Assembly: GCA_030594585.1 (NCBI GenBank)
Contig: JAUVEX010000001.1
Location: 1 to 24,039 of the forward strand
Source of the DNA: an archaeon
GTDB lineage: Archaea; EX4484-52; B79-G9
DNA length: 24,039 nt
Direction: 5' to 3'
Part shown: positions 22,841 through 24,002 of the stretch, piece after piece
Position numbering within the stretch: the first letter of the stretch is position 1
Layout: every line of letters begins with the position of its first letter
The notes under the pieces: generated by a model
Database searches by the model: none
What the model was told of the DNA's origin: nothing
The model's input: only the letters and a program-made list of their open reading frames with translations
Program-made: the position numbers and the translations under genes

Positions 22841-22990
22841 TTGAATGTAACAGTTATTTGTTCTAAATGTGACGGGCTTTTTGATTGGCGCTGGGGCAGA
22901 AGTAAAGGAGTATGTCAGCACTGTGATGCCATGCTGTCAATAAAAGATGTCAAGCTCGCCAAAGGCGAAATAGTTAAGCTATTTCAATGA
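22841..22990 (+). CDS. Zinc-ribbon microprotein (49 aa, not in the ORF track)
   Basis: GGTGAT RBS at 22832-22837, TTG start. Translates as MNVTVICSKCDGLFDWRWGRSKGVCQHCDAMLSIKDVKLAKGEIVKLFQ, i.e. CxxC-x14-CxxC. TATTTATAAA at 22774-22783 is a candidate TATA box. Confidence 0.7.
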   Translation: MNVTVICSKCDGLFDWRWGRSKGVCQHCDAMLSIKDVKLAKGEIVKLFQ

Positions 22991-23046
22991 TTCCTTTATA
23001 AATGAATTATCCTATAAATCTTACATAACAGTTATTGGGTGATTCT

Positions 23047-23655
23047 ATGGCTAAAAAGGATGTAAATGTTCAAAATATTGTTGTCTCAGGGGATAAACAC
23101 ACTATTGTTAAAAACGATATAAAAATTCAAAATATTGTTGTATCTGCGGATACACATACAAAATTTTCTTTAGAAATGCTTGCAGCAAATCTTGACGGTG
23201 CTGAATATGAGCCGGAATCTTTTCCGGGGCTTGTATATCGCGTTAAGGAACCAAAGGCATCCGCTCTTGTGTTTACAACAGGAAAGATAATCTGTTCCGG
23301 TGCAAAATCTTATGATTCTGCGAAAAAATCAATTGCCCAGGCATTGGAAGACTTCAAAAAAATAGGAATTGAGATTACTGGGAAAACAGATACGGCTATT
23401 GTAAATATTGTGGCTTCAGCAAACCTTGGCGTAAAGCTTGATTTGAATAAAATTGTGTTTGAGCTTGGTGAGTGCGAGTACGAGCCTGAACAATTTCCGG
23501 GTTTGGTATACCGGCATGACAAGCCAAAGGTTGTGTTTTTGATCTTTAATTCAGGCAAAGTTGTATGCACGGGCGCTACATGCGAGACAGATGTAGATAT
23601 TGCTGTTGACATGTTGAAAAAGAAGCTTGAAGATATTCACGCTGTAAGGAAATAA
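23047..23655 (+). CDS. tbp: TATA-box-binding protein
   Basis: GGTGAT RBS at 23038-23043. Two TBP repeats (NIVVS...YEPESFPGLVYR...FTTGKIICSGAKS and NIVAS...YEPEQFPGLVYR...FNSGKVVCTGA). Confidence 0.97.
   Translation: MAKKDVNVQNIVVSGDKHTIVKNDIKIQNIVVSADTHTKFSLEMLAANLDGAEYEPESFPGLVYRVKEPKASALVFTTGKIICSGAKSYDSAKKSIAQALEDFKKIGIEITGKTDTAIVNIVASANLGVKLDLNKIVFELGECEYEPEQFPGLVYRHDKPKVVFLIFNSGKVVCTGATCETDVDIAVDMLKKKLEDIHAVRK
23053..23160 (+). repeat. 57-nt (19-aa) tandem duplication at the TBP N-terminus
   Basis: TTCAAAATATTGTTGT is identical at 23069-23084 and 23126-23141. Protein: KKDVNVQNIVVSGDKHT / KNDIKIQNIVVSADTHT. Confidence 0.85.
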
Positions 23656-23738: not shown

Positions 23739-23981
23739 CTAATCACATGCAAAATCTACTTCATTTATTGTGCATTTGCATGGTTCATCCATACATATAG
23801 CGCATTGGGCCTCGCATATTGCTGCTTCTTCATAAGAAAGTCCGGTATCTGTTATTTTTGTATCTCCGGCATCAATAGAATTCATGACAGCGACGCCAAT
23901 AAGAGCTATTATTGCAAGAGCAATCACTATTGCGATTATCTTTTCCAATCCTCCGCCTGTTAAGTCTCCTTTGCGTTGCAC
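23739..23981 (-). CDS. Small type IV pilin-like protein, Cys-rich C-terminus
   Basis: GTG start at 23981 (alternatively 23990). MQRKG|DLTGGGLEKIIAIVIALAIIALIGVAVM, with 6 Cys in the C-terminal 25 aa. Confidence 0.72.
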   Translation of the reverse strand: MQRKGDLTGGGLEKIIAIVIALAIIALIGVAVMNSIDAGDTKITDTGLSYEEAAICEAQCAICMDEPCKCTINEVDFACD

Positions 23982-24002
23982 ATAAATCACGATATATTTT
24001 TA

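Follow-up and report, generated by a model that had tools for sequence, protein, structure and literature searches.

Solved archaeal TATA-binding proteins (TBPs), such as those of Methanocaldococcus jannaschii (2z8u), Sulfolobus acidocaldarius (1mp9) and Pyrococcus woesei (1pcz, 1ais and 1d3u), contain two PF00352 repeats. In the TBP fold, strand S1 occupies the middle of a ten-stranded sheet, between S5 and S1'. Eukaryotic TBPs carry an N-terminal domain, which includes a polyglutamine repeat. This extension is described as less well conserved and poorly understood in function (PMC3597702). Our search of the literature returned no description of an archaeal TBP with a duplicated S1 strand or a repeat tail.

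The TBP gene analysed here lies on the forward strand at positions 23047-23655 of the window (the whole stretch of 24,039 nucleotides under analysis). It consists of 202 codons plus a stop and encodes a protein, P0001, with two complete TBP repeats, as in the solved archaeal TBPs, with which P0001 also shares the order of secondary-structure elements, the S1 motif, and the phenylalanines of the FPG and F-x-x-G motifs. End-to-end alignments were obtained for its residues 24-200 with 1mp9 and for residues 18-198 with 2z8u. Unlike these proteins, P0001 bears 19 more residues at its N-terminus, which are a diverged copy of residues 20-38, S1 included, and it lacks their acidic C-terminal tail, ending instead with ...KKKLEDIHAVRK. 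The N-terminal tail resembles the eukaryotic extension in being non-conserved, variable in length, prone to repeats and placed at the same end of the saddle core. However, the eukaryotic tails are far longer, have an unrelated sequence and do not duplicate any strand of the core, and homology between the two is not implied.

The TATA-binding protein and its paralogue

Pfam, matches to solved structures and an AlphaFold2 model all identify P0001 as an ordinary archaeal TBP of 202 aa. The protein matched PF00352 in two stretches (E = 1.5e-58, 195 bits, with a cut-off of 22.9), each half was matched at 93-104 bits in a genome search, and the closest solved structures were 2z8u (E = 2e-44) and 1mp9 (E = 4e-44). 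In the AlphaFold2 model (mean pLDDT 88.8, pTM 0.79) the pattern S1-H1-S2-S5-H2 occurs twice, which corresponds to two beta-alpha-beta4-alpha folds; the predicted elements are strand 26-35, helix 42-48, strands 52-54, 62-66, 71-75 and 80-86, and helix 89-105, after which the pattern repeats.

Residues F59, F76, F150, F167, N29, V31, N120 and V122, invariant in an alignment of 101 TBP sequences, are all present in P0001, giving both conserved phenylalanine pairs and the N-x-V motif of S1. In solved complexes the phenylalanine pairs of the TBP repeats are the DNA-kinking residues. The core is under strong purifying selection (pN/pS about 0.04-0.06), which suggests that P0001 binds TATA DNA and recruits TFB.

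The genome assembly (approximately 1 Mb in 163 contigs, 78% complete) contains two TBP genes, the second of which encodes a 50%-identical paralogue and is located on another contig. Two TBP genes were also found in most of the 40 relatives from the same order.

The tandem duplication and the start of translation

Two copies of a 57-nt unit occupy positions 23045-23158 and include the start codon and the first 19 codons of the TBP gene. Tandem Repeats Finder reported this repeat with a period of 57 and 2.0 copies (23045-23156, 81% matches, zero indels). At a lag of 57 the best register begins at 23045, where 46 of 57 bases match, whereas the maximum averaged 27.9 and never exceeded 33 when the window was simulated 200 times with a first-order Markov model. 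These results bear out the claim of the initial annotation that a 57-nt duplication places two S1-like copies ahead of the core, although that account missed the register: the unit starts at 23045, 2 nt 5' of the ATG, and therefore the start codon itself was duplicated.

Copy 1 (23045-23101, forward strand) holds the presumed working ATG and encodes MAKKDVNVQNIVVSGDKHT, with the S1-like heptad VQNIVVS at 23068-23088. Copy 2 (23102-23158, forward strand) encodes IVKNDIKIQNIVVSADTHT, with the real S1 strand IQNIVVS at 23125-23145, and is followed by the normal TBP core. Both copies in the window genome read QNIVVS, with synonymous differences in Val and Ser codons (GTC/GTA and TCA/TCT). Over the whole unit the copies are identical at 43-45 of 57 nt, with a pN of about 0.2 and a pS of 0.17-0.43. 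Gene conversion between the copies was considered as a source of their identical 16-nt core and set aside, as the heptad shows synonymous differences at about the gene-wide rate, a comparison that covers two sites only.

In this register the ATG GCT AAA AAG of copy 1 aligns with ATT GTT AAA AAC in copy 2. The remnant of the duplicated start is therefore the ATT of codon 20 (23104-23106, forward strand), which lies opposite the ATG at 23047-23049 and is ATT in each of G000, G001 and G003. As the inner ATG is now ATT, the 19 extra residues are locked into the protein. In agreement with the initial annotation, which had noted the lack of a start codon between the copies, we detected no in-frame ATG, GTG or TTG between codon 1 and Met44. 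Its further remark that S1 of archaeal TBPs usually follows only a few residues is borne out by the median of 125 relatives (9 residues, quartiles 7 to 21) but is no rule, since 36 of these 125 have at least 20.

Upstream of the gene, two TATA-like boxes can be read from the sequence of the forward strand: TTTATAAA at 22995-23002 and CTATAAAT at 23012-23019. All four genomes of the genus have kept the first, also the genome that is free of the S1 duplication, while the second is not conserved in this way; both are putative promoter elements. A Shine-Dalgarno-like GGTGA (23038-23042, forward strand) is placed 4 nt before the ATG at 23047. It is kept in G000, G001 and G003, and G002 has GAGTGAT at the equivalent place. 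The conservation of this motif supports ATG 23047 as the start.

Public gene calls of relatives place the start elsewhere. The proteins P0122 and P0123 (178 aa; NCBI and nr) have the sequence that P0125 and P0002 show over residues 26-202, with M replacing I25, so that the apparent start is the ATA of codon 25 (23119-23121, forward strand) and the extra copy is cut off. Taken at face value, these calls would favour translation from this ATA, or from the ATT of codon 20, with copy 1 left outside the protein as a 5' leader, and the resulting product of 178 aa would have the typical length of an archaeal TBP. We regard this as improbable. Apart from the second box and the variant motif of G002, the signals described above are kept in the genus and precede ATG 23047; the homologous ATG is the sole possible start in the congener G002, where a TAA stands just upstream; and the 24 codons concerned are open, with zero indels, in all four carriers of the duplication, despite a pS of about 0.35. 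ATA and ATT are rare as start codons. The NCBI calls are most simply explained as a length-guided pick by an annotation pipeline; the ATA start is an annotation choice and is no evidence of initiation at codon 25. As far as sequence can indicate, the extra copy is translated in frame.

The public annotations of the same gene are thus inconsistent, as the duplicated segment has been silently dropped from the gene calls of two relatives (178 aa) and retained in other sources (202 aa). It is mainly for annotation, where such start calls disagree, and for calibration that the present case matters.

Carriers of the duplication and divergence of the extra copy

Among 40 relatives, a match over the full residues 1-202 was obtained only in G003 (96%) and in G001 (97-98%, split over two contigs); the genomes of the other relatives align to P0001 from about residue 20 onward. 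In a collection of 5.8 billion proteins, two N-terminal S1 motifs were found, among the best 120 of 5721 homologues, only in the 90% cluster of P0001 and P0002. This cluster comprises four distinct full-length forms: P0001, P0002, P0124 and P0125, the last of which is from genome G001. A scan of JGI metagenome contigs, with a best match of 72% identity, added no close relative, and thus the carrier clade stays at four sequences.

In a maximum-likelihood tree of TBP cores the four carriers form one shallow clade (support 80/89), nested in the clade of the genus (97/97) together with the congeners P0003 and P0004/P0005. The carriers are confined to a single genus of DPANN archaea; to the question raised by the initial annotation, whether the duplication is clade-wide in DPANN, the answer is therefore negative. 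By contrast, the initial annotation was right that the repeat is no assembly artefact. A collapsed or mis-joined repeat, introduced in assembly or binning, can be practically dismissed, as the copies differ at 12-14 of 57 positions and the same arrangement, with lineage-specific differences, recurs in at least four separately assembled genomes or contigs. That four distinct carriers come from separate assemblies indicates that the duplication is inherited.

The two copies have evolved very differently within this clade. In copy 2, NDIKIQNIVVSADTHTKF is identical in all carriers (the preceding residue 22 being K or N) and nearly so across the family, where IKIQN[IV]VVS is conserved. Copy 1, on the other hand, reads MAKKDVNVQNIVVSGDKHT in the window protein, MVKKDVKVQNIVVSEDKQV in P0002, MVKKDVKVQNIGVSEDKHV in P0124 (heptad core QNIGVS) and MAKKDVNVQNIVVPADKHI in P0125 (heptad core QNIVVP). 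Residue 12 of copy 1 corresponds to V31, invariant in the 101-sequence alignment, and residue 14 to S33, at least 90% conserved; V12G in P0124 and S14P in P0125 of G001 therefore mean that the extra strand accepts Gly and Pro at sites at which real S1 strands admit neither. The initial annotation had taken the QNIVVS kept by both copies as a possible sign of selection on a spare S1, a reading that these changes in the first copy do not support.

Variation is also concentrated in the tail, where 7 of the 20 sites of residues 2-21 vary, compared with 9 of the remaining 181 (Fisher p = 2e-4), giving approximately seven times the per-site rate. By Nei-Gojobori estimates for G000, G001 and G003, the pN of copy 1 (0.064-0.128) exceeds that of the core (0.012-0.025), at a pS of 0.32-0.41, from which copy 1 would be relaxed roughly five- to ten-fold relative to the core. 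Within copy 1, variable sites number 2 of 7 in the heptad and 5 of 13 in the flanks, so that the heptad is no better kept.

Some features could nevertheless be explained by a functional extra segment, which would act as a pseudo-strand on the saddle or the sheet edge (auto-inhibition), in dimerisation by beta-augmentation or in partner binding, and would thereby tune promoter use. The pN of copy 1 is only 0.2-0.36 of the gene-wide pS, and its decay is hence below the fully neutral rate. Q-N-I and V13, i.e. a Q-N-I-x-V core, are kept in all four carriers; the two Ile-to-Val changes that separate copy 1 from copy 2 (I6V and I8V) are conservative and preserve the alternating hydrophobic pattern; the heptad differences between G000 and G003 are all synonymous; and the reading frame of the extension is intact in several species-level lineages at a pS of about 0.35. 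There may be weak residual constraint on copy 1, as judged from 20 codons in four related sequences. We still consider a functional role unlikely. Two of the four carriers have V12G or S14P, each at a site that is never or seldom altered in real S1; conservation of the heptad does not significantly exceed that of its flanks; and the duplication is restricted to one shallow clade, whose congeners are without the NIVVS part. Moreover, textbook TBP structure, with S1 in mid-sheet between S5 and S1', leaves no free slot beside S1.

The AlphaFold2 model points in the same direction. It places S1 at residues 26-35, i.e. in copy 2, and predicts coil for residues 1-25. Copy 1, over which the alignment is shallow, is not predicted as a beta-strand within the sheet. 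The pLDDT of residues 1-21 is below 50, but only one other sequence of the 101-sequence input alignment covers these residues, and so the low values could reflect alignment depth instead of true disorder. By itself the model hints only weakly at a disordered tail, which agrees with the substitution pattern. The proposed check of the spare strand on the monomer thus went against it, with copy 1 left unstructured in the model and copy 2 forming S1. That the extra strand might swap into the saddle, alter dimerisation or change promoter specificity is speculation. A tail that did act on the saddle or in dimerisation would make this TBP a rare case of an archaeal basal factor under the control of a duplicate of its own DNA-binding strand, and the variable repeat tails of the family would then be worth studying biochemically; the evidence at hand points in the opposite direction.

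Our results are best accounted for, with good though not full confidence, by a slippage-type duplication that was fixed by loss of the inner ATG and is tolerated as a floppy N-terminal tail, not as a second working DNA-contacting strand. An in-frame duplication of 57 bp, most likely through replication slippage or unequal exchange, would have arisen in a repeat-prone, A-rich 5' coding region, copying the final 2 nt of the leader together with 19 codons from the start of one of the two TBP genes. Before this event the protein probably began with M-V-K-N-D-I-K-I-Q-N-I-V-V-S-A-D-T-H-T. After the later change of the inner ATG to ATT, translation from the outer ATG would add 19 residues before the real S1. 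The core-adjacent copy 2 would then serve as the working S1, and the distal copy 1 would form a flexible tail under strongly relaxed constraint, tolerated because the TBP N-terminus accepts extensions. For calibration, it may be noted that a motif which looked conserved in one genome appears, once close relatives are compared, to be a young and relaxed product of slippage.

Repeat tails of related TBPs

Orthologues in the sister genus carry other in-frame tandem arrays at the same 5' spot, which end just before IKIQNIVVS. Three of these have a period of 36 nt, with 6.5 copies in L010 (G007:C43), at least 3.8 copies in L011 (G009:C37), which is cut by the contig end, and 2.3 copies in L008 (G014:C124); L019 (G013:C79) has a period of 33 nt and 2.8 copies. 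The encoded repeats are acidic, 11-12 aa long (e.g. GKDISNDTENVT and KSVAEDAGIK), and stand directly before S1. P0014 and P0016 have near-identical cores, whereas their copy numbers differ, which gives tails of 37 and 62 aa, respectively. P0030 has two 11-aa units before S1.

These tails resemble that of the window in that they affect the same gene at the same spot 5' of S1, through in-frame tandem duplications whose number of copies varies from one close relative to another. In contrast, the units of the sister lineages are 33 or 36 nt long, acidic, stop before S1 and reach 6.5 copies, while the window unit of 57 nt is present twice and runs through S1. That this spot bears arrays with units of 33 or 36 nt, repeated 2 to 6.5 times, points to a slippage hot spot. 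The duplication in the window would accordingly be one case of a recurrent process, the 5' end of this paralogue being a tandem-repeat hot spot family-wide, in which the window unit happens to be long enough to take in S1.

Congeners of the carriers (P0003, P0004 and P0005) have short degenerate partial copies, ending with VE or VQN before NDIKIQN. The tail of P0003 reads MVDKDIKVE ahead of NDIKIQN, that of G002 reads MVKNDTKNVNFSNVQN ahead of NDIK..., and the units of G002 and P0004 end with VQN. The NIVVS part of the extra copy is not kept beyond the shallow carrier clade. Between G002 and copy 1 there is a 13-nt match, AATGTTCAAAATA, and a V before Q or E is common to the congener tails. 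The shared V and AATGTTCAAAATA are suggestive of trimmed descendants of the same 57-nt event; alternatively, in stretches as short and AT-rich as these, the congener tails may be small independent duplications.

One could also propose that the variable tandem-repeat tail, a pseudo-S1 in the carrier clade, competing with DNA or a partner or adding to it by beta-augmentation, and acidic in the sister lineages, tunes through its length or content the activity or promoter choice of one of the two TBPs, but to this we attach only a slight probability. The duplication is an ordinary lineage-specific quirk of a known protein, and the variable repeat tails found family-wide are mildly interesting.

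A different kind of repeat variation was seen in more distant homologues from metagenome contigs. P0006, P0010, P0021, P0044 and P0048 are TBP homologues of 272-289 aa, 46-50% identical to P0001. Three full Pfam TBP repeats, not two, are present in P0006, P0010 and P0021, and three S1 motifs, near residues 7-9, 98-100 and 191, in P0006, P0021, P0044 and P0048. The contigs are short (1.2-2.6 kb), so that an assembly error is possible, though several independent sequences are involved.

The TBP gene of the window is flanked by two small ORFs. Immediately 5' of it, on the forward strand, lies an ORF of 49 aa (22841-22990) with two CxxC pairs, resembling a zinc ribbon, for which a Pfam search gave zero matches; its 3' part is conserved at this position throughout the four genomes of the genus. 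In an ORF of 83 aa (23739-23990), just downstream on the opposite strand, the N-terminus is short and charged, a hydrophobic helix (…KGDLTGGGLEKIIAIVIALAIIALIGV…) comes next and the tail is rich in Cys, features by which the product looks like an archaeal pilin-like protein.
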